NCBI GenBank assembly: GCA_038243585.1
Contig: JBBSQY010000002.1
Location: forward strand, 86,857-150,856
Source of the DNA: Candidatus Sumerlaeales bacterium
Lineage (GTDB): Bacteria; Sumerlaeota; Sumerlaeia; Sumerlaeales; Sumerlaeaceae
Reading direction: 5' to 3'
DNA length: 64,000 bases
The notes beneath the pieces are model-generated. The model ran no database searches. It had not been told where the DNA came from and saw only the letters and a program-made list of their open reading frames with translations. Positions within the stretch are counted from its first letter, which is position 1; every line of letters begins with the position of its first letter. Below are positions 7,223 to 33,018 of this stretch, piece after piece. A program made the position numbers and the translations under genes.

Positions 7223-8692
7223 CTACTGGTTGCCCTGTTTAGCTTTGTTCCGGTTGCGCTTTCCTTTTTTCCGAACAGCCGGTTTGCTGGTTTTCGAGTC
7301 GTTCTCGGCGGCCAGTTTTTCTCTCGCTTTAAGTAATCTAGAATCCAAAAAAAGTGGTGGTGCGTTTTTGCGGTTCCAAACTTGCCAGGCCTTCCGAAGC
7401 TCAGCGACCTTTTCACTGTTTTCCTGCGCGACATCTTTTGTTTCGCCTATATCTTCATTCAGGTTATAGAGGGCCCAAGGCGCTCCGTCGGCTGGCTGGA
7501 CTGCTTTCCAGTCGCCCATTCTGACGGCTTTTTGGTTAGGGGCGTCAGTCCATTTCCAGAAGAGAGCTTCATGAGGCGTTCCGGTATTTTTACCGGTGAT
7601 AAACGGCAGCAGATCAACTCCTTCAAGATCAGAAGTTGTAGTTGTATTAGCGGCAGCCAGGAAGGTTGGGGTAAGATCGAGAGCAATAACAGGCTTTTCA
7701 TATTTTAGGCCTGCAGGAATAACTCCGTTCCACTGAATGAACAGGGGAACCCGAATGCCGCCTTCATATACAGTAGCTTTGCCGTCGCGCAGGACACCAT
7801 TGGATTCAGAAAGATTGCCGCGGGTACCGCCGTTATCATTGAAAAATACGATAAGGGTATTATCTTCTTGCCCGGAGTCACGGACAGCTTTCAAAATGTC
7901 GCCCACGGAATTATCCATCTCATAAATCATCGCCGCCATAGCGCGGTCTCGATCGTCTTTAATATTTTCAAACTTCTTCCGGGTTTCCTCCGGGGCTTGT
8001 AACGGAGTATGAACCGCGTTGAACGGGACATAGAGGAAGTAGGGATTGTCCTTTGAACGGCCAATGAACTGAACGGCTTCATCACCAAATGCGGTTGTCA
8101 GATACTGAGTCGTTTTAACAGGTTTGTCATTGCGGAGAATTGGTCCCGGTTTTTCAACTCCAGGTTGGTAATCATGGGCACCATGAAGGTGTCCGAAAAA
8201 GTAATCGAATCCCTGGCCGTTGGGCGTCATTTCCGTTTTAAATCCTATATGCCATTTACCAACCATGCCCGTAGAATAGCCGGCATCTTTAAGCATTTCA
8301 GAAACCAGGGTTGCAGTGGTCGGTAAGCCGAAATTTTCCGGAATTACAGGTCCATGATTGGATACGTACCCGAATCTATCTTGATAAATACCGGTGAGGA
8401 TTCCGACGCGAGAAGGCCCGCAAACAGGGCATGTCACGTATGCGTTAGTAAATTGCGCGCCGTTTTTTGCGATGGAATCAATGTTCGGAGTCTCGACTTT
8501 TTTACCGCCGGTTATACTGAGGTCGGCGTAATCCAGATCATCAGCCAGGATAAGAATGATATTTGGCTGCTTCTGCGTCTGCGAGGTTTCCGATGAACCA
8601 GCCAGTGTGGCGGTGGTTTGTGCGGAAACGGAGAACGCGCAGGCAGCCATGGCTGCCGCAAGCAGGCCGGCTCGAAACGTGGTTTGATGCAT
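7223..8692 (-). CDS. Formylglycine-dependent arylsulfatase family protein (secreted)
   Basis: PNIILILADDL, CGPSR (CxPxR), GKWH and DNGG motifs. The ATG at 8692 with an AAAGG RBS and a signal peptide is preferred over the ORF-track start at 8800. Confidence 0.93.
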   Translation of the reverse strand: MHQTTFRAGLLAAAMAACAFSVSAQTTATLAGSSETSQTQKQPNIILILADDLDYADLSITGGKKVETPNIDSIAKNGAQFTNAYVTCPVCGPSRVGILTGIYQDRFGYVSNHGPVIPENFGLPTTATLVSEMLKDAGYSTGMVGKWHIGFKTEMTPNGQGFDYFFGHLHGAHDYQPGVEKPGPILRNDKPVKTTQYLTTAFGDEAVQFIGRSKDNPYFLYVPFNAVHTPLQAPEETRKKFENIKDDRDRAMAAMIYEMDNSVGDILKAVRDSGQEDNTLIVFFNDNGGTRGNLSESNGVLRDGKATVYEGGIRVPLFIQWNGVIPAGLKYEKPVIALDLTPTFLAAANTTTTSDLEGVDLLPFITGKNTGTPHEALFWKWTDAPNQKAVRMGDWKAVQPADGAPWALYNLNEDIGETKDVAQENSEKVAELRKAWQVWNRKNAPPLFLDSRLLKAREKLAAENDSKTSKPAVRKKGKRNRNKAKQGNQ

Positions 8693-10892: not shown

Positions 10893-12488
10893 TTAGTTAT
10901 GAGAAGCCGGCGATTCTTCCAGCAGGTCGCGACCTTCTTCTGGGCTTCTTGCATGCCGAGCCTGCTGTTCTACGCTCTCTGAGTCACTATCCAAACCACC
11001 TTCCCCAAGGGCAGAGACAGCCTCAGTCTCGGCGGGTATTGGCTGCTTTGGTCGTGCTGCCGTTTGAGTATGAGCAGTAGAGACTTCGGCAGGCAGGTCT
11101 TTATCAGAGAGCACTCCAGCATCTTCCCGTGTAATGCGAACAACAACTGGAACCTCCTTGTTTACAATCACTTCACGAGCCTCGTCCGGCATGGATATTC
11201 CATTGTCTTGGAACGTTTTTTTAACCATGCGAATGACTGATGAGCGAACTTTTAGCCAGCTGTGCTTCGTACCGTCGAGCCAAAAATAGATCTTGAGATT
11301 TACTGTGGATGGCCCCAGATTATCTACTAAAACCCAAGGTTCAGGTTCGCTCAGAACAGCGGGATGATTGCATAGCACTCCCATCGCTACCTCTTGCACT
11401 TCCGTAATTACGTCATCATATCCGATTCCAATTATAAAGTCCTCGCGCCGATTGGGATTACTGGTATAGTTACGAATGGTGCTTTTATAGATTGTGGCAT
11501 TTGGCACCTGAACATGGTTTCCGTCCAGGGTCATCAGTACAGTCGTCCGAACGGTAAGCCGCTGAACCAGACCTGTAACTTCCTCAACCTCGATAAGGTC
11601 ACCCGACCGAAAGGGTCGTTGGATGCTTAGAAAAATGCTGGCAAGAAAGTTTTCCGTGATATCGCGAAATGCGATACCGATAATCAAGCCAATCAATCCG
11701 GTACCACCAAGTACAGTTACCGCCAGTCGGGCCAGACCAACCACCAGCAGTACTACGTAAAGGCAGAGCAGGAATACACCTGCGCCAGCCGCTATGGCAA
11801 CAACTTCGCGCAGTAGAGGAGTCAGGCTTTCTCTGCGCTGAAAGGTTCGCCGGAGAAATCCCGATATCCCAACCGCAGAAAACCATCCAACTACGAGAAT
11901 GACAATGCCAAAAACAATGAGGGGCAATACTCGGACTACGCTGCGCCACAAATTTTTCAAACTCATCAGAGCTGGAGCCGGATCCCAGAGAGGAGGCGCA
12001 ATAACTTCAATTTGGTTTACGACAGCAACAACGTCACGGGTGTTTCGCGCCAAGTCTCCGGCCCACTTCTTTAAAGACTCAGTTTTGGTGCGTCCGGATA
12101 AAAAAGCAACGCCTTCGTCGACGCTGACACTGGGTTTTTCGAACCACTCTGTTGCCAATAAGATTCTTTCTAAACGGCCGGCAATTTCTGTATCGTCTGA
12201 GCCGGGGCGAACCTCAACTTTGTCAGTCAGCACCGGCTTAGCATCTTCCTCTTCACCCGAGGACAGGGTTTCCTGCTTTGGCGCCCCAGGAAGCAACGAG
12301 CCTGGGGAAAGCTGGGCAAAGACCGGAGAATGTCCGAGTACTATTAAAAACACAAAAAACACGGCCAAGTTCCAGCAGCAGACCTTGCAGGATAACTGGC
12401 TATGCCTTCGCGGGAGGATAAGGTTGGTAGTAAACACGGAAACTCTCGCGTGCAATCGCTGTGCCAATGGGCGGTGCGGCATAGTCAC
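10893..12488 (-). CDS. Small-conductance mechanosensitive channel (MscS) with an N-terminal BON-like domain
   Basis: GIAFRDITENFLAS, PFRSGDLIEV and VPNATIY motifs; BON-like VDEGVAFLSG...VVAVVNQIEV segment. Confidence 0.9.
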   Translation of the reverse strand: MTMPHRPLAQRLHARVSVFTTNLILPRRHSQLSCKVCCWNLAVFFVFLIVLGHSPVFAQLSPGSLLPGAPKQETLSSGEEEDAKPVLTDKVEVRPGSDDTEIAGRLERILLATEWFEKPSVSVDEGVAFLSGRTKTESLKKWAGDLARNTRDVVAVVNQIEVIAPPLWDPAPALMSLKNLWRSVVRVLPLIVFGIVILVVGWFSAVGISGFLRRTFQRRESLTPLLREVVAIAAGAGVFLLCLYVVLLVVGLARLAVTVLGGTGLIGLIIGIAFRDITENFLASIFLSIQRPFRSGDLIEVEEVTGLVQRLTVRTTVLMTLDGNHVQVPNATIYKSTIRNYTSNPNRREDFIIGIGYDDVITEVQEVAMGVLCNHPAVLSEPEPWVLVDNLGPSTVNLKIYFWLDGTKHSWLKVRSSVIRMVKKTFQDNGISMPDEAREVIVNKEVPVVVRITREDAGVLSDKDLPAEVSTAHTQTAARPKQPIPAETEAVSALGEGGLDSDSESVEQQARHARSPEEGRDLLEESPASHN

Positions 12489-12560: not shown

Positions 12561-13097
12561 TTAGCTGCGAACCATTGAACTTAATGTGGATAAGCTGCTT
12601 TTTTCAGGAGCGTTAGATATGACTGAGAATGTACCGTCAGTTTCTAAGACGACCCCTTCTGCTTCTGTAGACGCCGAGCCACTATTTCGGAGAGCGGACA
12701 GAATTTCAGCCTCCGTTATACGGGCGCGCCGCATGTTACCTCGCAAATACTCGCCTTGATACATTAACAATGTCGGTTCCGATTTTACTAATTTCTCGAA
12801 CTGCGGAAATCTGACAGAAAGCCACGAAACAACAAACTGAAGAGAAGCCAACAGCAAAAATGCCAGGATTCCCTCTAGAATCGCAACATCTTTAGATAGC
12901 ACGATAGTAGCCAAAGTAGAGCCTAGGGCGACCGTTACCACAAGATCGAAAGCGTTCATTTTAGAAAGCGTTCGTTTTCCAAAGGTACGCAACACAGTGA
13001 CTAGTGCAACGTAGCTTACAGATCCAGCAATCAAAACACGAAGCAGTCCATACCATGAATCAAAAAGCATACTTGGCAGCGAATCAGGTAACTCCAT
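12561..13097 (-). CDS. DUF421/YetF family membrane protein
   Basis: GKRTLSKMNAFDLVVTVALGS and VVLETDGTFSVI motifs. Confidence 0.9.
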   Translation of the reverse strand: MELPDSLPSMLFDSWYGLLRVLIAGSVSYVALVTVLRTFGKRTLSKMNAFDLVVTVALGSTLATIVLSKDVAILEGILAFLLLASLQFVVSWLSVRFPQFEKLVKSEPTLLMYQGEYLRGNMRRARITEAEILSALRNSGSASTEAEGVVLETDGTFSVISNAPEKSSLSTLSSMVRS

Positions 13098-13197
13098 ATT
13101 GCGATGTCTCCTTCTGATCGAGCAGCTTCGGGCCTATGCAAAGGAACAGTAACGCGTCTGGTAAGGCTGTAAACTATTGATCTCAATGGGTTTGAAT

Positions 13198-13221
13198 TTG
13201 GTAGCGACGAGTGGAGTTGAA
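13198..13221. repeat. att core, distal copy (duplicated tRNA-Met 3' end)
   Basis: TTGGTAGCGACGAGTGGAGTTGAA is identical to 23725..23748; the match extends to 27 of 28 bp. Confidence 0.95.
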
Positions 13222-13331
13222 GGATTCGTCGTGGTATTGATACCATTAGACATACGCCCTATATATGGCTACTACACTCAATTTACATCCAATCTATTAT
13301 AGTAGTAGTATCAAACAAATTCCCTTCTATA

Positions 13332-13387
13332 GCCACATATACGCCTTAGAGACTTTACCCTATTTACCCTGTTTACCCTGTTCTAAA
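13332..13387. repeat. Left subterminal inverted repeat with 3x TTTACCCTR 9-mers
   Basis: GCCACATATACGCCTTAGAGAC-TTTACCCTA-TTTACCCTG-TTTACCCTG-TTCTAAA; an inverted near-copy lies at 23530..23586. Confidence 0.85.
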
Positions 13388-14529
13388 AACAATGCCAGCC
13401 GGTTAATGACGACGCGCCTTAGCCGGTCCGGATCCATAAGCTCCGCATAATGCTTATCTGTCATCCCTGCCGGTGCATGGCCTATATAAGCGCCATAGTC
13501 TGACAATGCGACGTCGGCCTTTACGCATAGGTTAACGAATGTTTTTCTAACGTCCTTCGGATCCATGTCGGCGTATGCGGGAATGTCGAAATCCGCCGCC
13601 ACGCTATTGAGTAGCCGGCGCAGGCTTAATCCAACGCTGTGGTGGGTCGCGTCAAATCCCTCGGTGTTCGTGACTACCAGCGCCTCAGGGGCCATCCTAG
13701 ACAGCTCAGCGGCCATCCATGCAGAGACTGCCGGCAGGATAGGAATGGATCGCGCACGATACTTGTTTTTCGACAGCTTAATGGATAGCATATTGCTTGT
13801 GAAATCGAAGTCGCCGACGCGCAGGCGGATAATTTCTTTAATGTTACACCCTACCAAACAGCCTAGAACAACAGCCCGTGGGATCGCACGGTTGACGCGC
13901 ATATTAGCGCATCCCCATAAAAGCGCCACCTGGTCAGCGTTTATGTAGTTTTTCTCCGGTGTGGATTCATCGGTTAAAAATCCGCTCTGGATTACCAGGG
14001 GATAGTACCGGCGCGGATCTGATCGTGCCTGGTTCTTTGCCGTCATAGTCAGAACGCCGATGTAGTGCCGTATGCTCTTTGGCTTTAATCCCTGGTCATG
14101 TAGAAATTTGACATAATCCTGTGCTACCGCGCCCGTGACTTTTTCCCAATATGATATGTTGGGGCCATCACCTTCTAACCAGTTTATGAAGTATTTTTCA
14201 AACCTGCGAAGATCCGCACGACGGTCATCTGTTTTGGCTCTGGCGTGCGTAATGGCTTTTCTGATAGCGTCGCCGATTAGGTCGCCGTCCATCCGGTCCA
14301 TAACATGAGAAAAGCGGGAGCCTAGAATGTCCCTAAGCTCCCGCGCCATCTTCTTCACTTCATCCGGCAGGGTAATTCCTGCCAGTTGCTTTTCCGTCTC
14401 CGCTTTTATGCCGGTGCTCTTCGACAGCCGTTTACCGGCAGTATCACGATAAACTAAATAGTAGCGCTTATCACTACTCTGGATCCTTATAGTAACGGCT
14501 CCGATTTTTTCCACTGTTCGCAGGGTCAT
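13360..14529 (-). CDS. Tyrosine recombinase/integrase
   Basis: N-terminal arm-binding-like YYLVYRDTAGKRLSKSTG; box I-like GCNIKEIIRLRVGDFD; SKNKYRARSIP; DVRKTF; IGH...MTDKHY with the catalytic Tyr; adjacent to att. Confidence 0.88.
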   Translation of the reverse strand: MTLRTVEKIGAVTIRIQSSDKRYYLVYRDTAGKRLSKSTGIKAETEKQLAGITLPDEVKKMARELRDILGSRFSHVMDRMDGDLIGDAIRKAITHARAKTDDRRADLRRFEKYFINWLEGDGPNISYWEKVTGAVAQDYVKFLHDQGLKPKSIRHYIGVLTMTAKNQARSDPRRYYPLVIQSGFLTDESTPEKNYINADQVALLWGCANMRVNRAIPRAVVLGCLVGCNIKEIIRLRVGDFDFTSNMLSIKLSKNKYRARSIPILPAVSAWMAAELSRMAPEALVVTNTEGFDATHHSVGLSLRRLLNSVAADFDIPAYADMDPKDVRKTFVNLCVKADVALSDYGAYIGHAPAGMTDKHYAELMDPDRLRRVVINRLALFLEQGKQGK

Positions 14530-14761
14530 GCTTTTTTTGTTTCATCCTGACTGGTTTTAAGTCAATACTGGTTTTGGGATGGAGCAGGCTTTCCACTCTC
14601 TGCCGGCCTATTTCGTCCAAATAGTGAATGATGGTCCCGCCCCAATACCTGCCCCGAATGGTAGCCAGGGGCGCACATTCGTCAGCGAGTTTGCGGCCTA
14701 GCATTATTTCGAGCTCAGCAGCGCCATACCAGCGGTATGGGCGAATGATAGGTTTAAGCAT
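14474..14761 (-). CDS. Small hypothetical protein, possible excisionase/DNA-binding protein
   Basis: Overlaps both the primase stop and the integrase start; WYGAAELEIMLG resembles the start of an HTH. Confidence 0.55.
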   Translation of the reverse strand: MLKPIIRPYRWYGAAELEIMLGRKLADECAPLATIRGRYWGGTIIHYLDEIGRQRVESLLHPKTSIDLKPVRMKQKKHDPANSGKNRSRYYKDPE

Positions 14762-17267
14762 GATTCACCGCCTGGGGGTTCATGTGGTACACTCTGGCAG
14801 GCTTCTTTGCCCCTGGTGATAGAATCTCCGCTTTGCGCAGGATGTGGCGCTCTTCAAGGTAGGAAAGCGCCTCGCTGAATATGCTTTCGTTTTTCATGCG
14901 CTTCTTTACCCGGTCCCACAAATCCGTGTGGCGGATGGGTGATTCTCCGGTACTGCCGGCAAGGTTGCGGATGTGCCTAAGTGCATATTTAGCATTCGAC
15001 TGGACCGGGAGCTCCTTCACGATGCCGAGCACCTGGTCCGCACGATACAGAAAATATGTTCCCAGCGTAATCGCGCTTTTCATCGTGTCAGCCGATATGG
15101 TCCGCCCTGCGTAATCGATGGGGAATTCTGCTACGTGCAGACACGCCGCCAGGCGAAGGATCCTGCCGGCATGTTTAGCGCCCCACTGTGCAATGTCCTC
15201 TTCGCCGAAGTCACCCGTATCTGGGCAAAGTTTAGGCATGAAGTCTTGTCTGAAAGTACGAAATTCAGCAGCAGCGCCATCACTGAGTTTTAGGACTACA
15301 CCATCGTTCGTATCATTTAGCAGGTGCGTAATTGTTTTAAGGTATTTCTGTTTTATCGCCTCATCGATGGGGGGCGCATCTACTTTATAATTTGCAAAGT
15401 CAATGCTGCCACGCAGAAGGATATAACGCTGGATTACGCCGAGCCCTGTAAATGTGTCCTGGTTTATAACGCCGTCAAATGGCTTCGGTTGCACAAACTG
15501 CACGACAGATAAAAGTGGCGCTTCAAGTGTTTCATTCCCACCTGAAACGCGGTCCCGGACGTGCCTCTCTCCGTCATAGCATTTGGGAAATAATGTGCAT
15601 GAGCTTTGCCCGTTGCTATACATCCCACCCATCACGTTAAACAGTTTGGAAGACTCAGCAGAAATAACGATCCCGCTTTCCCTGTTTTGCTTTTCGCCTA
15701 ATGGCTTGAATAGTGATTCTTCGGTGAAATCCTCATATATAAGCCGCCTTGCATTCCGAGCCGGTAGGGCGTCCAATTCCGTTTCAAGGTCCGTGAGCTC
15801 CATTGCCAGCATTTTACGATCCGCAGAAGTGGACGCCTTATTTACTTTTCGCACAACAGCCGCCTGCCGTGCGACAATTATCTTTTCTTCGTTGCCGGCA
15901 AGGATCCGCTCTTGTCTGGATTCGAGCTCATTCTGTTTTCCCCAAAGAACGGCAGGTTCTGAAATGGCTTCCAATGTCGCTGATTTTGTAGCGCCTGGGG
16001 GAAAGATTACCATCACCCATAAGTTTGTGTTTTCCTGCCAGTTTGTTTTGCCTTCAATTATCACACGCCGCTGGATCGTAGACGATAACATCCCCAACGC
16101 AATGGTCGCGGTTACTTCTACCGGCACGTTCTGTTGAACAGCCAGCTCCGCGGCGAAATCTCTTAACCAGGGTGAACCGTCGAATGACTGTAAGGGGAAC
16201 GTCTCCGCGTCTTCGCCAAACATCTCACCCGGCGCTACCTGGTCAATGGATATCAGCTCCGGCCATTCCTCGACCTGGGCAACCGCCGGCTCCCATAGAA
16301 CAGCTACCTTTAGGCGCTCATCATAACTCATTCCTGCCGGCTCTGGGTCGGCCAGGTCTTGGCCTTTTTCCATGCCATCGGTCGGCATGATCCGCACCCG
16401 CGTATTCATCTCATAAAGGTGTGCGGCTAGTCCGTCCATCGCATCAGTGCCAGGCTCGTCAGCATCAGGAATTAAGAAGCCTTCAGAGTTCGCCAGTAGG
16501 CGCCAGTCTGTTTTGTTCCATGTTCCGGCGCTACCTTGCCAGGTGAGTATTAACAGATCAGGCCAGCGCTCCTGTGCGGCCTCCATTGTCTTGTGCCCTT
16601 CACATATTGCCCACGGCCTGGTATCTCCAGCAGCAATCTTGTCAGCCCCATAGAACGGCTTATTGTCCAGGCTACCGTGAAAGTGCCAGCCAGCTTTATA
16701 TTTTCTGCCTTCGTGGGTGTGTTCTGTGTCGTAGTAGTAGCACGGTCTGAATTGCTTACGGTCAAACACTGGGGGATTGTCCCATCGGTAGTCATAATTG
16801 AACAGCGTGCCATCAGAATTTAAGAGGGTGTAGACGTGATCCGGCTTGCCTAATTTGTAAGCTTCTTTTGGCGGTGCAATATCTTCCGGCGGGTTACGAT
16901 TTATGTTGCATATATCTGCCGGCAGGGGTGTAGTTTTGGTAATCCTTGTCGGGATACTTTTAGGTTTTGCCTCGGTTCGCGCCGGGGCAATTTCTTTTTT
17001 TGGGGGGCTTGTGTTTGTCGCTGTGTTCATCCGGTGGTTGCCTCTCAAATCGTCTCTGAAGTGGTCTGCTATTTCTTTGGTGGGGCATTTCATGGTAGTG
17101 CACTTGAACATCACATCCCCAGACTTCGCGCTATCCCATACCAGGCAGTTTAAGCCGCTGCCCTTATGGATGGGGCAATTGATCCTGTAGCAGCCTTTAG
17201 CGTCCGGTCTGGTAGATCGTGCGCTGCCGTTGCCGTACCTGTCGGCAATGTCTGCCGCGTTCATCAT
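14754..17267 (-). CDS. Primase (Zn-finger + Toprim) fused to a DUF3987/YfjI-like domain
   Basis: CPIH...FKC zinc-binding motif; Toprim ICEGHK...PDADEPG...KGQDLAD; C-terminal NLWVMVIFPPGATKS, DFTEESL, YDGE...RDR and GRILRLAACLH typical of DUF3987. Confidence 0.88.
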   Translation of the reverse strand: MMNAADIADRYGNGSARSTRPDAKGCYRINCPIHKGSGLNCLVWDSAKSGDVMFKCTTMKCPTKEIADHFRDDLRGNHRMNTATNTSPPKKEIAPARTEAKPKSIPTRITKTTPLPADICNINRNPPEDIAPPKEAYKLGKPDHVYTLLNSDGTLFNYDYRWDNPPVFDRKQFRPCYYYDTEHTHEGRKYKAGWHFHGSLDNKPFYGADKIAAGDTRPWAICEGHKTMEAAQERWPDLLILTWQGSAGTWNKTDWRLLANSEGFLIPDADEPGTDAMDGLAAHLYEMNTRVRIMPTDGMEKGQDLADPEPAGMSYDERLKVAVLWEPAVAQVEEWPELISIDQVAPGEMFGEDAETFPLQSFDGSPWLRDFAAELAVQQNVPVEVTATIALGMLSSTIQRRVIIEGKTNWQENTNLWVMVIFPPGATKSATLEAISEPAVLWGKQNELESRQERILAGNEEKIIVARQAAVVRKVNKASTSADRKMLAMELTDLETELDALPARNARRLIYEDFTEESLFKPLGEKQNRESGIVISAESSKLFNVMGGMYSNGQSSCTLFPKCYDGERHVRDRVSGGNETLEAPLLSVVQFVQPKPFDGVINQDTFTGLGVIQRYILLRGSIDFANYKVDAPPIDEAIKQKYLKTITHLLNDTNDGVVLKLSDGAAAEFRTFRQDFMPKLCPDTGDFGEEDIAQWGAKHAGRILRLAACLHVAEFPIDYAGRTISADTMKSAITLGTYFLYRADQVLGIVKELPVQSNAKYALRHIRNLAGSTGESPIRHTDLWDRVKKRMKNESIFSEALSYLEERHILRKAEILSPGAKKPARVYHMNPQAVNHA

Positions 17268-17494
17268 TTCTTTTCCTCAATTCTGTAATGCCCGCCGCTG
17301 TGATTCCAGCAGTGTGATAATCGGTGGTCGGGGTCGGTGAATTCCGGCTTCGTCCCGGTGCCGCCGCCGTGTCGGTGTGGCTCTCGGCAGTAGGGGCATT
17401 GTCCTATCAGCAGCCACATACTGCTGTAACGTGACCACTCAGCCCGGCAGTAGAATACCGGCAGTTGTTCCTCGGTGTCGATGGTGGTGGTCAT
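17264..17494 (-). CDS. Small Cys/His zinc-binding protein
   Basis: CPYCREPHRHG...HRLSHC; ATGA-coupled to its neighbours. Confidence 0.65.
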   Translation of the reverse strand: MTTTIDTEEQLPVFYCRAEWSRYSSMWLLIGQCPYCREPHRHGGGTGTKPEFTDPDHRLSHCWNHSGGHYRIEEKK

Positions 17495-17703
17495 CGTTCG
17501 CCACCGCCCAAACCGACAGATCCGCGACGCAGGCCCCAGCGCTCCAAGGCTTTTTCCAGTGAATCAGCATCGACGCGCCGCCGGATGCGGAAAACTGGAT
17601 AATCTGGAACAGTGTTATTATGATAATCTGCCCAGTGATGAAAGGCGTTTGGACTACTGAAACCGGCAAGTTTTGCCGCCGACGTGATGGAGATCAATTT
17701 CAT
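17491..17703 (-). CDS. Small HTH-like DNA-binding protein (paralog of 17700..17918)
   Basis: MKLISITSAAKLAG excisionase/AlpA-like start; 4-bp overlaps with both neighbours. Confidence 0.7.
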   Translation of the reverse strand: MKLISITSAAKLAGFSSPNAFHHWADYHNNTVPDYPVFRIRRRVDADSLEKALERWGLRRGSVGLGGGER

Positions 17704-17918
17704 TTGGTCGCCTCCCGCTTGCCTTGCTTTGCTGCCGAACGTGCATGTGCTTTCCGAATGATCGCCGCCTCGATAGAATCCAAATCGACCCGGTTACCAC
17801 ATCTCAAAATTGGATGTGCTGGAAAATCTGCCTCGTACCGGCCAAGCCAGTTGTTAAACGAGTTCTTGCTTACATGACCCGTAAAAGCCATTGCCGCGTC
17901 TAATGAAACGAAACGCAT
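17700..17918 (-). CDS. Small HTH-like DNA-binding protein (paralog of 17491..17703)
   Basis: ATG at 17918 preceded by a GGAGG RBS; aligns end to end with the downstream ORF. Confidence 0.7.
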   Translation of the reverse strand: MRFVSLDAAMAFTGHVSKNSFNNWLGRYEADFPAHPILRCGNRVDLDSIEAAIIRKAHARSAAKQGKREATK

Positions 17919-18029
17919 TATGCTGCCTCCTGTGTAACTGAAAATTAGTTTCAACCCGCATTAACGACAGTCGGCTACAGGTGGGCGCAAAATAGTTGAA
18001 ATAGTTGTGGTGGGTCGCCCGGCGGGATG

Positions 18030-18059
18030 AAAAAAGCCCCCCGGCGCTTGCCAGGGGGC
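18030..18059 (-). terminator. Intrinsic terminator inside the element, upstream of the replication operon
   Basis: Minus strand GCCCCCTGGC-AAGC-GCCGGGGGGC-TTTTTT, 5 nt after the stop at 18065. Confidence 0.8.
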
Positions 18060-18064
18060 AGTGG

Positions 18065-18280
18065 TTAAAGCGCCTCGACTTCATCCGCCACGGCTCTGAG
18101 TTTATCCGGCAGGTGATCAGCCAGGTGCCGGGCTTCCTCAATGCAAAGCCAGGTAACTTCACCGCGGACTTCCAGGGCAACCAAAGGGATTCCCCCACGG
18201 TACTCGACATAAACTTCAATCCCGTGATCTTTGAAAACATCTTCGCCGGTGAAAACAGGTCGCGTGGTGGTGGCGGTCAT
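18065..18280 (-). CDS. Hypothetical protein (71 aa)
   Basis: ATGA overlap with the upstream ORF; followed by a terminator. Confidence 0.6.
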   Translation of the reverse strand: MTATTTRPVFTGEDVFKDHGIEVYVEYRGGIPLVALEVRGEVTWLCIEEARHLADHLPDKLRAVADEVEAL

Positions 18281-18612
18281 AGCGCTACCGCTGTGAAAAA
18301 CAGATCGGCATCAGCGTCGCGCTTCTCTATGTCATCGCGAAATTCGCACATTGATTTCAATGCGGTATCACGTCCGCTAACTACGGCATTATAGTAGTCG
18401 CTTAAGTCTTCCGAATCCATCAGCGGAATTCTAATCTGGCGAAACAGATCATACAGAATCGTGGCAATGGGTGCAAACTTTGCCAGCATCTGCTCTTTTT
18501 CTTCCCGTGAAAAAACTGCTGAATCTATCACGATAAACTCAGGACGTCCGAAATCAATCTGACTTTCGTTCTCTCTGTGGGTAACGGGGTTTGTTGCGTT
18601 AATCGTGGACAT
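18277..18612 (-). CDS. Hypothetical protein (111 aa, acidic)
   Basis: ATG with an AAAGG RBS; coupled to the downstream ORF. Confidence 0.6.
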   Translation of the reverse strand: MSTINATNPVTHRENESQIDFGRPEFIVIDSAVFSREEKEQMLAKFAPIATILYDLFRQIRIPLMDSEDLSDYYNAVVSGRDTALKSMCEFRDDIEKRDADADLFFTAVAL

Positions 18613-18853
18613 AAAAAAATCAACCTTTCGATACTTCGTGGTTGACGGAGACTGACACGCACCTTCAGGAATGCGTATAGGTCATTCGGTGTGCAATCAC
18701 CGTCTTGACTCAGGCCCTGGGTTGCGCTGAACACGCTTCCTGGGGCCGCTTATTTATCCGGCATGGTCTTACTGCCGGGCGTTGGCAAGAGAAATCGACA
18801 TCACGGCGCGATTCCAGCCACTCTGAGCCACTTTAGCAGTTGCCTGCGTGTGT

Positions 18854-18979
18854 TTGCACCGTCGGCACATGAACGAAAGCCAGCGGGCAATGATTGGCGC
18901 GAAGATCGCCAATATGGTGCGGGGTGAAAATCAGCATACGCAAATTTGCGGAACCATATCCCAATCCGACGCCGCTGAA
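18854..18979 (+). pseudogene. Fragment resembling phage ParB-like/HTH proteins
   Basis: Translates as LHRRHMNESQRAMIGAKIANMVRGENQHTQICGTISQSDAAE, matching the NLHRRHLxxSQRAM...SQxxAA pattern; no N-terminal domain is present. Confidence 0.55.
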
Positions 18980-18981
18980 CA

Positions 18982-20475
18982 TCATATCCCCATCACTTCA
19001 TGACCTGGATTCCGTTCATTCAGCGTGAAGTTAATCGTGGATTCCTGCCCGGCGCGTCCGGTATTGGCCCGGTTGGCGGCTTGCGTCGCGTGAATATCCT
19101 CATTCGACATCCCGCCTCCCTGCAACGCACCAGCACCGAATTTTGCAACCATGTCAGCCTGTAGCTTTTTATCTTTCGTGGCATCCATCGCCGTTTTACC
19201 ATGCGCCCTTAACCAGTTGTCCACGACGGCATTTGTGGAAATAGCTGTCTGGTTCATCGGGTTGGCGCGGTCGCTGTCGGCCGGGTACCGCGCCGTTGTC
19301 TTCGCATCATGAGCCGCTACCTTGTCACGGTAGCCCGTTTCATTCGCAGCAAATCCAGCCGCTTTTTCGCGCGCTTTTGCAGCCATCTCATCCGCGCCGA
19401 ATAAGTCATAGACATTAGCCGCAAGATTCTCCGACTTGCCCATAACACTATTATTAAACGCCCCGGCTTTGTTGTCCAGGTTCTTAATGTCACCGGCTTT
19501 TTCAGACATCGAGGAAACCAGCGCCGCAGCATTTACAGCAGCGGTGCCCAGGAAGTCAGAAAACGCCTTCGCGTCTTGCCCCATCTCTGCCCAATCAATG
19601 CTTTTGATCGTGCCGAACAGGTCTTTGGCGCTGTCTGCAATGTTCTCTCCAAATGCTTTGGTAAACTCGTCAACACCCATCTTCGCGTCACCGCTGATAT
19701 ACTGCACGAAGTCCACCAATTCGCCTTTAATGACATCAAACAAGGGAGCCGTCGACGCCTGCTTCATGTTATCGAAGAATGATCCCGCCGTGCTGGATAG
19801 CCCTTCCCATGTCGACGCCATCTGCATAACCAGTTCAGGCCCCGCGCCCATTTGTTTCAGTGCAGCATTGATCAGCTCCATACCCTCGAGGCCCTGGGCT
19901 TTTAATTCTTTTATAACACTACGAGATATATCAAACCGGCTTTGTAAACTTACATAGTCCCCGCCCATAGCCTCACGGATAGAGAATGCAGCACCTTCAA
20001 GCCCCTGCGCCGGATTAAGCGCCGCCAGAACTTCCGCAGTCTTAACCAACTTCATCAGCTCTTCGCGTGAACCCTTCGCGCTGGAAATCAGCGCTTTGCC
20101 CGCTGTGATCATCTCGCCGGTGTCGAACGGCGTAACGTCAGCTTCCGTGCGAAGATCCATTACAATCTGTTTTGCAAGCGCCGCGTCCTTCGTAAACGCT
20201 GTAAACGTCGCTGTGGCCTGCTCAATCGAACTGTTGAGCGCCAACCCATCTTTCACCATGGAACCAAACGCGACACCCGTAGCAGCCGCCGCAACACCCG
20301 CAGCAACGCCCATCCCGGCCAGAACCTTCGCAGCCGGTGCAAACGCTTTCGCCACAGCCCGGCCTTCAGTCATTGCGTTATTCTTAAACCGGGTGAAACC
20401 TGTTTGCGCGCTCACTATACCCGCGCGAAATTCGGCGGCGTCTAATTTAACTTTTGCTGTGACTTCTGCGCTCAT
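18982..20475 (-). CDS. Short tail tape-measure-like protein (497 aa)
   Basis: Ala/Gly-rich and helical; N-terminal VTAKVKLDAAEF; tape-measure domain pattern IEQATATFTAF...ADVTPFDTGEM...ASTWEGLSST; GAAAGG RBS. Confidence 0.75.
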   Translation of the reverse strand: MSAEVTAKVKLDAAEFRAGIVSAQTGFTRFKNNAMTEGRAVAKAFAPAAKVLAGMGVAAGVAAAATGVAFGSMVKDGLALNSSIEQATATFTAFTKDAALAKQIVMDLRTEADVTPFDTGEMITAGKALISSAKGSREELMKLVKTAEVLAALNPAQGLEGAAFSIREAMGGDYVSLQSRFDISRSVIKELKAQGLEGMELINAALKQMGAGPELVMQMASTWEGLSSTAGSFFDNMKQASTAPLFDVIKGELVDFVQYISGDAKMGVDEFTKAFGENIADSAKDLFGTIKSIDWAEMGQDAKAFSDFLGTAAVNAAALVSSMSEKAGDIKNLDNKAGAFNNSVMGKSENLAANVYDLFGADEMAAKAREKAAGFAANETGYRDKVAAHDAKTTARYPADSDRANPMNQTAISTNAVVDNWLRAHGKTAMDATKDKKLQADMVAKFGAGALQGGGMSNEDIHATQAANRANTGRAGQESTINFTLNERNPGHEVMGI

Positions 20476-20490
20476 AACGAATTACCTTTC

Positions 20491-20531
20491 AAAATAAAAA
20501 TGCCGCCTGGGGCAGAGGGATCCCAGGCGGC
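20491..20531 (-). terminator. Intrinsic terminator immediately upstream of the tape-measure-like gene
   Basis: 10-bp stem GCCGCCTGGG/CCCAGGCGGC followed on the minus strand by ATTTTTATTTT. Confidence 0.65.
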
Positions 20532-20640
20532 GATTCGCGGGGAAACGAGCGTAAACCCGCGAAGATAAAATAAGTTGGACGACGGCTAACCCTCGCCGAT
20601 TAGCCGCCGCCCGCTCTTGACGGTTTCCCATCAAACTTTG

Positions 20641-20820
20641 TTACCGCCTGCGTACCAGGTCAGCCAATGGATCAGGCGACCTTGCATTGTCCTGGACGCG
20701 CTGGGTGTCGATATCCGTGCCCGCGCCCAACGAGGATAAACTCGAAAATCGCTGGACAGGTTCCGCCGATTCGTCATCAGCAGGTTTTGGCTCTTCTATG
20801 TCTTGGTAAAAATCTCTCAT
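20641..20820 (-). CDS. 59-aa acidic peptide (not in the ORF track)
   Basis: ATG at 20820 with a GGAAAG RBS, TAA at 20641; MRDFYQDIEEPKPADDESAEPVQRFSSLSSLGAGTDIDTQRVQDNARSPDPLADLVRRR. Confidence 0.55.
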   Translation of the reverse strand: MRDFYQDIEEPKPADDESAEPVQRFSSLSSLGAGTDIDTQRVQDNARSPDPLADLVRRR

Positions 20821-20988
20821 AATTTAATCTTTCCGAGTAGACGGACGCCTCTTCCAAGACGCCCGCCCAACCCTATTTCGGAGCTATGGACGCAACGACA
20901 ACGGCCATATTTTGACCGCCGGGCTACGCGGTTGAAGGTGTGCCCGGCGGCCTGATTCGTTCGCAGCAGGCAAGCGAATCAAACGTGA

Positions 20989-21999
20989 TTACGGAGTCTC
21001 ATCAGCGCTTATAAGGATAGAAGCCGGATAGCGGTCAGCCTCTAACGGCTGTGCCACTGTGACCGGGTTCGCCGTACAAAAGCCAATTCGCGCGACCGCT
21101 TTAATTGCGATAGAGTCAGCTTGCATGAGATTCAGCATAATGTTTCCCGCCAAATCTTGGATCACGCCATCTTTGTGAACGCTGATATGGAGTTCCTCAC
21201 GGACGCCCACCAGGTGTTTTGTGCGGTCGAACATGATCATTTCAATGTCGGACGCGTCGGGGTTCTGTGGCGGGAAAACTCCGTCGACCCCGAAGGAAAT
21301 TTCACGACCAAACAACCGGCCTTCCAGTGCCTCGCCGCTCTGAAGTTCCTCGGGAATGAAAAGCGGGCGTCCGAGCGTATCGGTTTCCGACATTAAATCG
21401 TACTCGAACCCCGGCCTAGCGATAGCGCCATTTAACTGGAAACCATCCCGGCGCGACATCTTTAGCACGTTCATAATGTCCGTGCGTAGACCACCATTAG
21501 CCGCCGCCGTGTCGATAACCGTCACGTTACCGGCGCTCATCGCACCAGCAGCAACATGAGCCGGCCAGACAATCGGCTTTTCAATTCCGAAGAAAATTGC
21601 CTTATCAATTGCCATCGCGATACTCTGGGCAATCGCCGGAATTATTTCTTCCGTGAGATTGATCCCTCCAGCCTGAATGTCAGACATCAGCCGGCGCGGA
21701 AATGGTATGATGACGGCAATGTCGGCCACGTTCATGTCAATATTGGCCCATGATACATCGCTCGTCTGGATAAGCCGGGTATCATCTTCAGGTGTGCCGG
21801 TTTGGGTTAGCCAATAAGATTTCGGCAGCGCCGTCATAACCGGGAAAGATTTGTTCTGCGTCAAAATTGGAACGTGCTTGAAGAACCGCAATGCGGCCGA
21901 CTGTTGCGTCGCCATCTTGAAAATTTTGTTGGAATGTTCGCATGGAACAAGGCCACCGGCAGAGGTTGCGTTGCGGTCTGTGATATCGTTGAAAGCCAT
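20989..21999 (-). CDS. Phage major capsid protein (HK97 fold)
   Basis: GGLVP..S.KI, IAVIIP, IA.AIDKAIFFG, DTLGRPLF, LFGREI and NLMQADSIAIKAVARIGF patterns; AAGGAG RBS. Confidence 0.88.
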   Translation of the reverse strand: MAFNDITDRNATSAGGLVPCEHSNKIFKMATQQSAALRFFKHVPILTQNKSFPVMTALPKSYWLTQTGTPEDDTRLIQTSDVSWANIDMNVADIAVIIPFPRRLMSDIQAGGINLTEEIIPAIAQSIAMAIDKAIFFGIEKPIVWPAHVAAGAMSAGNVTVIDTAAANGGLRTDIMNVLKMSRRDGFQLNGAIARPGFEYDLMSETDTLGRPLFIPEELQSGEALEGRLFGREISFGVDGVFPPQNPDASDIEMIMFDRTKHLVGVREELHISVHKDGVIQDLAGNIMLNLMQADSIAIKAVARIGFCTANPVTVAQPLEADRYPASILISADETP

Positions 22000-22090
22000 G
22001 AAAGTGGCTCCTTAATAGGGAGATCGCGGGAGGAATGGAATAGCCTATCAGTTACCTGTCAGCCATGACGTTTCAACCGCGTCGCCTTTA

Positions 22091-22609
22091 TTAACGACAG
22101 CTTGCTTCCAGGTCGCTCCCAATAATCCGATTTTGCATCATATCTGATAGTATTTCCGGCTGTGCAAATAAAGCCGTCCCGAAATCCTGTAGGCTTGCGA
22201 AAAGAGCACCCTCACGACGCCACGCACGACGCCGCATTTTCAGAATATCCATCGCCTTATTTTTCGCGGATCCGAGAAAAAACGAATTCACGCTGCCGCT
22301 AAATTCAAACCCGGCAACCGGTAACCCGGTTCGCGGATTGAGACGCCGGCATTGTTTAGGTTTTGCGCTCTCGAGTAGGTGCATCAAAATTTCATTTCGT
22401 GCGTCGTCTTGATCCTCCTGCGACAGTGAAACCTTGTACGCCCATTGCTTCGCCAGTGGTAGCAGCAGGGCCGCAACGTCAGCCAGCAGGAATTCATTCT
22501 CTGGATCCCGCCGCAGCGCCACAATAGCGGCCTCCAGGTCAATGGCCTGTTGTGCGAAATCAATCACTGCGTGATGGCTACGGGGAGCGCAAACAGCAGG
22601 CATAAGCAA
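22091..22609 (-). CDS. Sigma-70 region-2-like protein lacking region 4
   Basis: LLPLAKQWAYKV...EDQDDARNEILMHL...SVNSFFLGSAKNKAMDILKMRRR resembles ECF sigma region 2. Confidence 0.6.
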   Translation of the reverse strand: MLMPAVCAPRSHHAVIDFAQQAIDLEAAIVALRRDPENEFLLADVAALLLPLAKQWAYKVSLSQEDQDDARNEILMHLLESAKPKQCRRLNPRTGLPVAGFEFSGSVNSFFLGSAKNKAMDILKMRRRAWRREGALFASLQDFGTALFAQPEILSDMMQNRIIGSDLEASCR

Positions 22610-22684
22610 ATCCTTTCTTGTGTAAATGCTTACCCGTACCCGCCGCTTTCATGCAAGGTGAATCCGACAGTCAAGAGAAAAAAA

Positions 22685-23290
22685 TTATGCTTTCACCGGC
22701 GGGGCATCGCCCATCTTTTCAGGCATATAGTCGCTGAAGTCCATCGTATCGCCGACGCATCCAGTTTCTACCCACTCCCTGGGCGGCAAACCAACATGGA
22801 CGAACGTGATCGGGGTCTCCGTGTCATCCTTCGCCACAAGTTCCTGGTAGGCCTGAAAATCTTTGCTCAGCCGTTGGTCATAACTAATCCGGGCCTCGAG
22901 TAGCTTCCGTTTTTCCGATGTGTAAAAGCGCTTATCCGCCATTGTCTCAGCATCAGCCAGGCATTGATCAAGACGAAGGGCCTCCACATCCAGCGCCACA
23001 AGCGTGTTTTCGTGCCGATCCAGCATGAAAGCCAGCCGCGCCTTGCCACTGGATAGACTCTCAGCCAGGTTCACCGGATCGCCCTCGGCAATAGCCAGAA
23101 CAATCGCCGGTGTATGCGAATGTACCCTTGCCGTAGTCTTACCCACCGGCGGCTCATCGCCACGAACCCGCGCACGGTACCGCCGTTTACTGTCAGCCCG
23201 GCATTTCTTGCAATCGCCCGCAGCATAACGCTCTGAGGTGCCACACTTCGCGCAAATCTTGTCATTATCCATGCCAGGTATTAACGCCAT
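22685..23290 (-). CDS. Zn-finger (CxxC...CxxC) coiled-coil protein, possibly terminase small subunit-like
   Basis: CAKC...CKKC N-terminus, helical middle and a terminal beta-strand-like PITFVHVG; first gene of the structural block. The function is inferred from position only. Confidence 0.5.
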   Translation of the reverse strand: MALIPGMDNDKICAKCGTSERYAAGDCKKCRADSKRRYRARVRGDEPPVGKTTARVHSHTPAIVLAIAEGDPVNLAESLSSGKARLAFMLDRHENTLVALDVEALRLDQCLADAETMADKRFYTSEKRKLLEARISYDQRLSKDFQAYQELVAKDDTETPITFVHVGLPPREWVETGCVGDTMDFSDYMPEKMGDAPPVKA

Positions 23291-23529
23291 TCGTACCCAC
23301 CGGCCACGCTGTACCCATGATTTTCACAAAAAGCCAAAAATCTCCCGTTTCAGTGCTAGCGAGCATTGGCCTATACCAGCTACAGGGGTGCCCCGGCCTT
23401 GTAATAGTTACAACCGTTGTGTGGTGCCCTGTGGCGGCTGTGGTGGTGGTGCTACTCGGATCAGTGCCACGCGGTGCGGTGTGTTGTGTGTGTGGTGGTG
23501 CGCCGGCAGTGGTGGTTGACGTGCGTTGG

Positions 23530-23586
23530 TTTAGCAATAGGGTAAATAGGGTAAACAGGGGAACTCTCTTAAAGCGTATATGTGAC
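23530..23586. repeat. Right subterminal inverted repeat with YAGGGTAAA 9-mers
   Basis: The reverse complement GTCACATATACGCTTTAAGAGAGTTCCCCTGTTTACCCTATTTACCCTATTGCTAAA aligns with 13332..13387. Confidence 0.85.
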
Positions 23587-23724
23587 ATCACCACATACGC
23601 CCTACACCCAGTTTACACCCAGTTGTTCGTGGTGTGGTGGGTGTATCTTGCCTGTACCTTCAATGTGGTTAAAGTGGTTATCGCTTGATATAGCTGGGGA
23701 TCAGGTAGTTGGGTGATAGGGAAA

Positions 23725-23748
23725 TTGGTAGCGACGAGTGGAGTTGAA
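23725..23748. repeat. att core, copy within the intact tRNA-Met
   Basis: Identical to 13198..13221. Confidence 0.95.
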
Positions 23749-23802
23749 CCACTGACCTAAGGGTTATGAGTCCTTCGCTCTAACCACCTGAGCTACGCCG
23801 CC
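23726..23802 (-). tRNA. tRNA-Met(CAT), probably elongator (Ile2 not fully excluded)
   Basis: GGCGGCGTAGCTCAGGTGGTTAGAGCGAAGGACTCATAACCCTTAGGTCAGTGGTTCAACTCCACTCGTCGCTACCA; cloverleaf, CAT anticodon, encoded CCA. Confidence 0.93.
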
Positions 23803-23852: not shown

Positions 23853-23928
<76 letters not shown>

Positions 23929-32787: not shown

Positions 32788-33018
32788 TCAAAAACCTTCG
32801 TTTAGATCGGCTCGGAGCCGCGGAATGGCGGTGACAAAGAAGAAAGATGGTAATCCGTCGATCTTCGGCTGAAATGGTTACACTCGTGCAGGCTTCGGAA
32901 TTTACAGAAGTAATAACTGGTTCCCAGCCGTTTGTTGATTTTACAGGAAAACTGTTGATTTCCGTCAGAAGAATTTTGATTAGTCTATTAGTCACATTGC
33001 TATTGAGGAAAACTATCG

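Follow-up and report, generated by a model that had tools for sequence, protein, structure and literature searches.

Mini genomes of 5-11.6 kb with HK97 capsids have recently been described (Aguilar et al., Nat Commun 2026; PMC13669383). As described there, the dominant group comes from the human gut, averages 8.75 kb and carries encapsulin-like capsid domains, a scaffold gene, sigma factors, repressors, RepA (in several genomes), a DNA helicase and an integrase. The description of this group gives no terminase, portal or tail genes, with one open reading frame (ORF) annotated as a tape measure. In the same account, tail genes are reported for 23 of the 536 'twilight' genomes with capsid genes, and 20 of these 23 have only one tail gene. 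Satellites and non-canonical packaging are the explanations put forward by the authors. Here we describe an element of comparable size and gene content, located at positions 13198-23748 of a window of 64,000 nucleotides (nt), that is, of the whole stretch of DNA analysed, from a Candidatus Sumerlaeales bacterium (assembly GCA_038243585.1, contig JBBSQY010000002.1). In our estimate, the chance is even that it is an intact integrative element, 10,527 bp long, moving as the satellite of a tailed phage. Since it carries genes for a capsid protein and a short tail ruler and no recognised packaging or tail genes besides, it is probably a parasite of a helper phage.

The element resembles the 'twilight-zone' mini HK97 genomes, as these are described, in its length of 10,527 bp, its HK97-fold capsid, sigma-like gene, helicase and integrase, and in the lack of recognisable portal, terminase, connector and tail-tube genes. 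It has one tape-measure-like gene, as in a minority of the reported genomes. It differs in its origin from a soil metagenome-assembled genome (MAG), in a capsid protein matching PF05065 only, in its primase-like/DUF3987 protein and in its conserved short tape measure. Moreover, it is seen integrated, with defined att sites. The comparison is with the genomes as described in print; no relative of the element was found in IMG/VR.

As listed in PMC10690885, the gene set of those phage-inducible chromosomal islands that form capsids (cf-PICIs) comprises their own capsid, protease, portal, head-tail connectors, TerS/TerL and HNH, and MiniFlayer and MulchRoom encode terminases, portal and capsid. 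Putative tmp genes in PLE-like elements and in some cf-PICIs are indicated in the legend to Extended Data Fig. 10 of PMC12987554. The element would be, like cf-PICIs, an integrative satellite with its own HK97 capsid, and some members of that family have a predicted tape measure. However, the cf-PICIs described have the whole head and packaging set, whereas in the element the capsid alone of that set was recognised. The PLEs of Vibrio cholerae are described as encoding, besides a tape measure, a chaperone for tail assembly and in many cases the hub of a baseplate. Their tape measure is taken up selectively into chimeric tails and alters tail length; they use the helper capsid with an external scaffold of their own and are specific to ICP1 and Vibrio (PMC12987554). 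A satellite-encoded tape measure is thus common to the PLEs and the element, but no sequence relation between them was found. The EPIP satellites of Mycolicibacterium (bioRxiv, December 2025; PMC12822802) are described as having TerS, adaptor, stopper, scaffold, a serine integrase, capsid and tape measure. The element is similar to them in combining capsid and tape-measure genes in a small satellite genome. It differs in having no TerS, adaptor, stopper, scaffold or serine integrase, and in having a tyrosine-type integrase and a primase-helicase.

The satellite P4 has an 11.6-kb genome and a T=4 shell (quoted in PMC13669383). The element agrees with P4 in a length of ~11 kb and in integration at a tRNA gene; both have small regulators, a primase-helicase and an integrase, and a T=4 shell would suit the size of the element. 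P4 lacks a capsid or tape-measure gene of its own; it resizes the helper capsid by means of Sid and Psu, and its Delta protein activates the helper late genes. The markers of P4-like satellites are Sid, Psu, Delta and an alpha-type primase together with an integrase. Fifteen ORFs were scanned with Pfam and PHROGs (E<=0.01), and none of them matched Sid, Psu or Delta. Classical PICIs are recognised by int, alpA/stl and pri-rep, plus TerS or capsid-redirection genes; none of the 15 ORFs matched TerS, Ppi, Rpp or Cpm.

The gene set of the element is that of none of the P4-like, PICI, cf-PICI, PLE and EPIP families. An earlier note on this DNA had proposed a candidate new satellite type. Portal-less mini HK97 genomes and satellites with tape measures are in print, which weakens the claim, and it has been partly overtaken (PMC13669383, PMC12987554, PMC12822802). 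The element is not a categorically new kind, such kinds having been published in 2025-2026. New in this analysis are the motifs in the att arms, the division into three modules and a short tape-measure clade with its own C-terminal motif.

Borders and recombination module

The borders of the element are formed by two copies of an att core, one of them in a tRNA-Met gene. The features of both arms and of the integrase gene are as follows.

13194-13221 and 23721-23748: direct repeat of 28 nt, 96% identical, with one mismatch (repeat finder)
13198..13221: distal copy of the att core, attR as seen from the tRNA, identical over 24 nt to 23725-23748
23725..23748: tRNA-side att core, within the 3' end of tRNA-Met
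23726..23802, minus strand: tRNA-Met(CAT), the integration target, with its 3' end restored by the element
23853-23928: second tRNA-Met
13252..13380, plus strand: att-proximal arm, in which ATACGCCYTA occurs twice (13252, 13339) and TTTACCCTR three times in tandem (13354-13380)
23291..23724: repeat-bearing leader of 434 nt that separates the first gene from the tRNA-side att core
23538-23555, minus strand: two tandem copies of TTTACCCTA in the leader
23595: leader motif ATACGCCCTA
23603-23624: exact tandem 11-mer in the leader, TACACCCAGTT twice
13360..14529, minus strand: tyrosine-recombinase-like integrase, 389 amino acids (aa), last gene of module C

The identical 24-nt cores are spaced 10,527 bp apart; the repeat finder and the tRNA coordinates agree with the unit delimited in the earlier note. 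The 24-mer occurs at two places only in the 3.43-Mb assembly, and these are the two att cores. An Rfam scan yielded the two tRNAs and nothing else. The GC content is slightly higher inside the unit (0.51-0.56) than in the flanks (0.45-0.52).

Two motifs are restricted to the att arms. ATACGCCYTA has three copies in the 64-kb window (13252, 13339 and 23595) against 0.12 expected, a number reached in no shuffle, and all three are at most 130 nt from an att core. TTTACCCTR has five copies in the window against 0.72 expected, again reached in no shuffle. These form an array of three in tandem on the plus strand (13354-13380) and one of two in tandem on the minus strand (23538-23555), so the arrays are inverted between the arms. 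Window-wide, both motifs are confined to the vicinity of the att cores. They are candidate arm-type sites for the recombinase or for accessory proteins. In a circular form of the element, the arm repeats would flank the core at ~130-190 nt on each side, by analogy with the arm-type sites of attP. Their restriction to the att arms provides new support for an intact integration system. The leader also contains GT-rich 30-nt repeats at 23418-23516; these and the 11-mer are possibly a promoter, an operator or a packaging site. Promoter-like sites are not in excess (11 versus 10.0 in shuffles). An ORF overlapping the leader (23265-23594, 109 aa) is probably not a gene, as it is of low complexity and lies in this repeat-rich sequence.

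The integrase matches phrog_1 (E=9.1e-22), and its match to Pfam PF00589 is sub-threshold (25.9 bits versus a cut-off of 27.1). No match was found in the PDB or in cultured phages. The sequence was read by eye with R..HxxR..Y, which we take to be the catalytic motif positions: KxxR, H and Y are present, and the position of the first catalytic Arg appears to be occupied by Asn. A paralogue on contig C75 (9784-10432, truncated by the contig end), 39% identical over the C-terminal 215 aa, has the same Asn. This favours a variant clade over a dead gene.

In a sister species of the same genus (G002, contig C101), the orthologous tRNA-Met has a second copy of its 3' end ~3.9 kb away (8456-8488 and 12351-12383). 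The segment between them encodes a kinase/FGE-sulfatase fusion, a 354-aa protein of no known function and an AraC regulator, and has no integrase. At this shared tRNA hot spot, it looks like an insertion that has decayed or is of another sort. To the left of it, the sister species has cytochrome c, NMO and ribonucleotide reductase genes, a flank unlike that in the window. An empty tRNA-Met site was not demonstrated; in this sister species other DNA occupies the site.

Capsid, tape-measure-like and other genes

All credible genes of the element are on the minus strand. They are compact and intact, with overlaps of 4-8 nt, and form three co-directional modules divided by terminator-like hairpins. 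Module A consists of the genes for the zinc-ribbon protein p201, the sigma-like protein p172, the capsid protein and orf59. Module B has the 497-aa tape-measure-like protein, followed by a gap of 369 nt, orf111 and orf71. Module C contains orf84, orf70, orf76, the primase-helicase, orf95 and the integrase, again with overlaps of 4-8 nt. In the order of transcription, the features are:

22685..23290, minus strand: p201, a 201-aa protein with a Cys4 zinc ribbon, encoded at the head of module A
22091..22609, minus strand: p172, sigma-70 region-2-like protein, 172 aa
20989..21999, minus strand: HK97-fold major capsid protein (MCP), 336 aa, full length, with no delta domain
20641..20820, minus strand: orf59, acidic, 59 aa, directly after the capsid gene, no family match
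20577..20612, minus strand: stem-loop of 15 pairs that runs into a T-rich tail; it closes module A, after orf59 and ahead of the tape-measure-like gene
18982..20475, minus strand: tape-measure-like protein, 497 aa
18613..18981: stretch of 369 nt that follows the tape-measure-like gene directly and has neither a credible ORF nor a match in Rfam
18065..18612, minus strand: orf111 and orf71, acidic, overlapping by 4 nt, downstream of the tape-measure-like gene, no family match
18036..18059, minus strand: terminator-like hairpin of 10 pairs (9 G-C) with a T tract, at the end of module B
17264..17954, minus strand: orf84, orf70 and orf76, three small translationally coupled ORFs
14754..17267, minus strand: replication protein, 837 aa, with a primase-like N-terminal part and a DUF3987 helicase-like domain
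14474..14761, minus strand: orf95, 95 aa, overlapping the primase stop and the integrase start, no family match

Pfam matches were obtained for three of the 15 ORFs, namely the integrase (below the cut-off), DUF3987 and Phage_capsid, and PHROGs matches for five, two of them weak (above 0.003). No portal, terminase, protease, connector, tail tube, chaperone, baseplate, holin, lysin or other lysis protein was recognised among these ORFs by Pfam and PHROGs. The anatomy and all gene calls given in the earlier note are borne out: the genes it regarded as intact are co-directional, its integrase, primase-DUF3987 and MCP have Pfam or PHROGs matches, and the portal, TerL, head protease, tail tube and lysis gene that it failed to see were not found here either.

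The MCP is a typical member of its family. It matches PF05065 (E=1.6e-11, 44.6 bits versus a cut-off of 24.2), TIGR01554 (E=9.7e-13, 48 versus 27.5) and the major head protein family phrog_10 (E=4.5e-27). PF05065 is its sole Pfam match at E<=0.01, and no encapsulin domain was found. A profile built from the MCP and five relatives matches the solved actinophage capsids 8eci (2.4e-103, positions 2-325) and 8edu (7.5e-83), as well as the capsid of staphylococcal phage 80alpha (6b0x, 3.3e-20). The MCP can be aligned end to end with the solved T=7/T=9 actinophage capsids. In tblastn searches of cultured phages it matched 634 records, with at least 80% coverage in 632 of them. All these matches are below 60% identity, the best (~33%) being in siphophages of 40-52 kb. 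Closer relatives, 48-53% identical and of the same length (336-339 aa), are encoded on contigs of 2.4-9.2 kb and are known here as proteins alone.

In the Arthrobacter phage ChuckDuck, the capsid homologue stands in the canonical order TerS, TerL, portal, gp4, scaffold, capsid, decoration and adaptor, followed by stopper, terminator, tube, chaperones and, after these, a ~1267-aa tape measure. In the phages that have both genes (loci L168, L171 and L120, and ChuckDuck), the capsid gene is separated from the tape-measure gene by ~4-5 kb in which connector and tail genes lie. In the element the two are 513 bp apart.

The 497-aa protein itself has no Pfam, PHROG or NCBIfam match. An exhaustive phmmer search yielded 1341 homologues at E<=0.001, 597 of them at E<=1e-10. 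The protein has a hydrophobic Ala/Gly-rich segment (residues ~44-75) and a tape-measure N-domain (~40-290), after which come a middle that varies and a C-terminal end specific to the clade, ERNPxHxVMx. In alignments with proteins of 500-2400 aa, the N-domain corresponds to their N-termini. TMP_3 (PF20155) is matched by five of the 21 homologues scanned, in one case above the cut-off (P0020), and all seven matching records from cultured phages are annotated as tape measures. These alignments, matches and annotations make the homology to tape measures sound, and on this basis, in place of a direct family match, the tape-measure-like call of the earlier note can be upheld. Among the loci compared, the nearest long form has 710 aa (L120) and is 52% identical over residues 19-239. 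It is encoded in a compact prophage-like region from IMG/VR (L120 / L121, 72% GC) with portal, capsid, adaptor, a tail protein and the 710-aa tape measure, followed by integrase and excisionase. In both L120 and L168, the homologue is located within a tail module.

The C-termini were compared in 150 listed homologues. Nine of the 150 (P0007-P0014, aligned at 31-67% identity, and P0135; 424-503 aa) share the pattern H-x-[VI]-M-x at the C-terminus, after a short strand-like stretch. The other 141 end differently, and no longer homologue in the list bears the motif. Thus the short form is a conserved clade and not a truncated gene. The proteins of this short type come from contigs of 1.5-11.9 kb and from one of 33.1 kb and, like the close capsid relatives, are known here as proteins alone. 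Several other homologues among the 150 listed also have 366-550 aa, and the 'mini' of the earlier note is to be taken as a relative term.

The replication protein matches PF13148 (E=3.9e-62), the DNA helicase family phrog_2373 (2.7e-47) and the primase/helicase family phrog_239 (5.9e-9).

The protein p172 is likely, but not certain, to be sigma region-2-like. Its only homologue is 52% identical, and an AF2 model built from the two sequences has a pLDDT of 62 (73-86 in the core). When this model was compared by VIA-align, sigma factors occupied at least 16 of the top 20 rows, with sigB as the best (Z 8.9, root-mean-square deviation 2.5 Angstrom over 91 residues), a Z score in the range common for helical bundles. 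In Foldseek, sigma factors are at the top of both the PDB matches (E 0.13) and the BFVD viral models (E 0.011), all of them weak. The match to PF04542 (Sigma70_r2) is sub-threshold (E=0.086), and one Sigma70_r2 cluster was found in the atlas at 0.94. It is on the fold and the sub-threshold match that the sigma2-like call of the earlier note stands, as a likely one. A BLASTP comparison of p172 with the ChuckDuck scaffold showed no similarity.

The Zn-finger assignment of p201 agrees with its CxxC...CxxC pattern, which is read directly from the sequence. The prediction gives it a long hairpin of helices and an acidic tail that is disordered. Its AF2 single-sequence model is poor (pLDDT 46), no solved structure or family match was found in PDB and Pfam, and the atlas scores do not exceed 0.86. 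Its position and helical hairpin, and nothing else, would suggest a TerS-like or scaffold-like protein, and this role is therefore not claimed; BLASTP against the TerS of ChuckDuck showed no similarity.

Of the small ORFs, orf84 and orf70 are paralogous (33-34% identity, E 2e-7 and 7e-9). By their sequence pattern alone, they read like AlpA/Xis-like (excisionase-type) helix-turn-helix proteins. The start of orf84 is probably the ATG at 17918. The third ORF of this group, orf76, bears Cys/His residues. None of the three has a Pfam match. An ORF of 128 aa (17854-18240) that spans the terminator-like hairpin is probably not a gene. The 369-nt stretch after the tape-measure-like gene is a candidate regulatory, origin or packaging region.

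Relatives, helper and activity

The assembly is a MAG from soil, 3.43 Mb in 99 contigs and 89.7% complete, from a sparsely sampled phylum. Relatives of the capsid and of the 497-aa protein were sought in the MAG, in genomes of the phylum, in species genomes, in IMG/VR and in metagenome contigs of the JGI. In species genomes, 37 loci with distant relatives of the capsid were found, at most 36% identical and mostly from Actinomycetota. In IMG/VR there were 387 loci with distant capsid relatives, 80 of which were kept, and 80 tape-measure loci. Two loci hold homologues of both the capsid and the tape measure. When the other proteins of the element were compared with 199 loci by tblastn, the locus in the window was the sole match. 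None of the 52 small IMG/VR contigs (<16 kb) with distant capsid homologues has a terminal repeat, and they were therefore treated as fragments. A back-translated pattern of the C-terminal tape-measure motif had no matches in IMG/VR. No match to the element was obtained by Megablast in E. coli genomes or in cultured phages, and the 497-aa protein had no tblastn match in a plasmid collection. The largest contigs encoding close relatives of the capsid or tape measure are of 8.5 (P0007), 9.2 (P0003), 11.8 (P0135), 11.9 (P0010) and 33.1 kb (P0012), P0003 being a capsid and the other four short tape measures; this fits elements of ~10 kb and does not prove them.

A number of observations weigh against a working satellite. 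No portal (PF04860), TerL (PF03354, PF03237) or second capsid gene was found in the 89.7%-complete MAG, and tblastn of the MAG gave no second homologue of the tape measure or capsid. The element belongs to a very rare family. A profile of the close capsids matched one of 75 genomes of the phylum, the match being the element's own copy, and nothing in the other 74. No close relative was found in IMG/VR, either in scans with the capsid and the 497-aa protein or with an alignment of the four closest capsids, nor in the species genomes (one pattern scan) or the JGI metagenome contigs. The synteny at ~10-11 kb for which the earlier note had proposed a search was not found in these scans. Ordinary phages, prophages or fragments account for every locus examined that has a distant homologue of the capsid or tape measure. 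The best homologue of the primase-helicase is only 28% identical, and so the relatives of the capsid and tape measure are not demonstrably carried on the same backbone. The integrase is under the Pfam cut-off, with the first catalytic Arg apparently missing. No TerS and no cos or pac site was recognised. Finally, to our knowledge, there is no known satellite class in which a lone capsid protein, lacking its own portal, scaffold and protease, is fitted to the head machinery of a helper in this way.

The data on activity point in the same direction. Contigs of three sequencing runs were compared, and one of the runs (X1, public and probably the source sample) holds the element. In this run the element is single copy, with a depth of ~8 versus ~10-12 in the flanks. 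Its contigs contain no circle junction of the kind that the earlier note had proposed to look for. A joint from 13070 to 23726 is weak and imprecise as a sign of excision and was not counted as such, since it has 22 letters on one side and is off the att core. The same run has a second contig form, in which 17261 is joined to 18101 at a depth of 4.4 versus ~9.5 for the main form, with three base differences at 17211-17214. In this form, the terminator region and the genes orf76, orf70 and orf84 are missing or replaced. Thus variants of the element, or of the host strain, coexist.

The genes flanking the element are ordinary ones, namely MscS and YetF-like on the left and DivIC-like, FabZ, LpxC, Skp and BamA on the right, which indicates that the host is a diderm bacterium. 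The competence gene ComEC/Rec2 (4672-7131; TIGR00361, 4.4e-70) lies 6 kb to the left of the element, and PilT and PilC genes lie to the right of it (31702-34248). The host may be naturally competent.

Alternative explanations and a possible life cycle

An intact element that depends on a helper, as held in the earlier note, remains the most economical reading, although no helper, sound excision junction, cos/pac site or homologous ~10-kb locus was found. It is supported by the identical att cores, the arm repeats, the intact overlapping ORFs, the full-length capsid and the conserved clade of short tape measures, as well as by the short distance between the capsid and tape-measure genes and by published precedents: satellite tape measures in chimeric tails (PMC12987554), satellites with both genes (PMC12822802) and portal-less mini HK97 genomes, for which a satellite life is among the hypotheses in print (PMC13669383). 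The element may instead be a cryptic prophage remnant. This would require a small siphophage that, after its integration at tRNA-Met, was deprived of its terminase, portal, protease, connector, tail-tube, distal tail and lysis genes; chance would have spared the integrase, the capsid and replication genes and a tape measure of reduced length. The examined relatives of the capsid and of the tape-measure N-domain do reside in ordinary phages and prophages, no related locus of ~10 kb was demonstrated, and the element is single copy with no excision signal in the one run. The unusual motif of the integrase agrees with such an origin, as does the apparently decayed insertion at the same tRNA in the sister species, which indicates that decay at this site does occur. 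However, at least three separate deletions would be needed, and after each of them the ORFs would have had to remain intact, densely packed and in one direction, with the ends of the modules clean. The two att cores have stayed identical, and repeat arrays are kept on both arms. The short tape measure belongs to a conserved clade with its own C-terminus, and the capsid relatives are equal in length at ~50% identity. Moreover, a primase-helicase, small helix-turn-helix-like ORFs and an integrase are the usual backbone of P4-like and PICI satellites. We therefore consider a remnant rather unlikely.

Capsid and tape-measure genes might also serve a defence or decoy island, poisoning the head and tail assembly of infecting phages, with or without transfer of its own. 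Satellites and islands that block the capsid or tail assembly of a helper have precedents, among them the Rta of PLE11 and the chimeric tails described in PMC12987554, and systems interfering with tail assembly are described on PICIs and prophages (PMC11364771). A sigma-like regulator of its own would also suit an island of this type. On the other hand, none of 15 proteins (13 ORFs of the element and two flanking genes) matched the PADLOC defence models, a complete and conserved capsid protein exceeds the needs of a decoy, and the element's own replication and integration modules point to one that moves; we hold a decoy to be quite improbable. An even smaller probability is assigned to an autonomous portal-less HK97 mini-virus of the 'twilight-zone' type, with its own shell of ~T=4 and neither a helper nor a canonical tail. 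Its tape-measure-like protein, with a membrane-like segment and clade-specific C-terminus, would form a transient conduit for DNA delivery in place of a tail, and the element would be an integrated, host-linked case of these hypothetical non-canonical viruses. A length of 10.5 kb together with a capsid, sigma-like factor, helicase and integrase matches the mini HK97 genomes as published, and non-canonical packaging is raised there as an alternative (PMC13669383). The hydrophobic segment at residues ~44-75 of the 497-aa protein and the lack of a helper in the MAG agree with this explanation. However, the published alternative, as described, has a rolling-circle Rep at its base (PMC13669383), whereas the element has a primase-helicase. 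Its MCP is a typical Phage_capsid member, close to the T=7/T=9 capsids of tailed phages and with no encapsulin domain match. No HK97-fold virus is known to package double-stranded DNA without portal and terminase, and a homologue of tape measures implies a tail tube to be measured.

If the element is a helper-dependent satellite, its life cycle might be as follows. Upon infection by a helper phage, or its induction, the element would be excised by the integrase and the small ORFs, and replicated by its own primase-helicase. The sigma-like protein would switch on its late genes. The capsid protein could then assemble on the helper portal, with the scaffold and protease of the helper, into a shell sized for ~10.5 kb; by analogy with P4 (11.6-kb genome, T=4 shell), this shell may be of ~T=4. 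The helper terminase would package the DNA of the element from a putative site. The short tape measure would replace that of the helper, giving a chimeric and probably shorter tail. If tails have a length of ~1.5 Angstrom per tape-measure residue, this tail would measure ~75 nm.

As a remnant, the element would be a cryptic island of the ordinary sort. As a working satellite, it would be the most reduced to date of those that bear a capsid gene, supplying only a shell protein and a tail ruler, plus its own sigma-like switch. Shell protein and ruler would have to be fitted to the portal, scaffold and tail parts of a helper, and chimerism of both head and tail would become testable in one small element. 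To the portal-less mini HK97 genomes, it adds a host, namely an uncultured diderm, an integration site and exact borders, which the metagenomic contigs lack.

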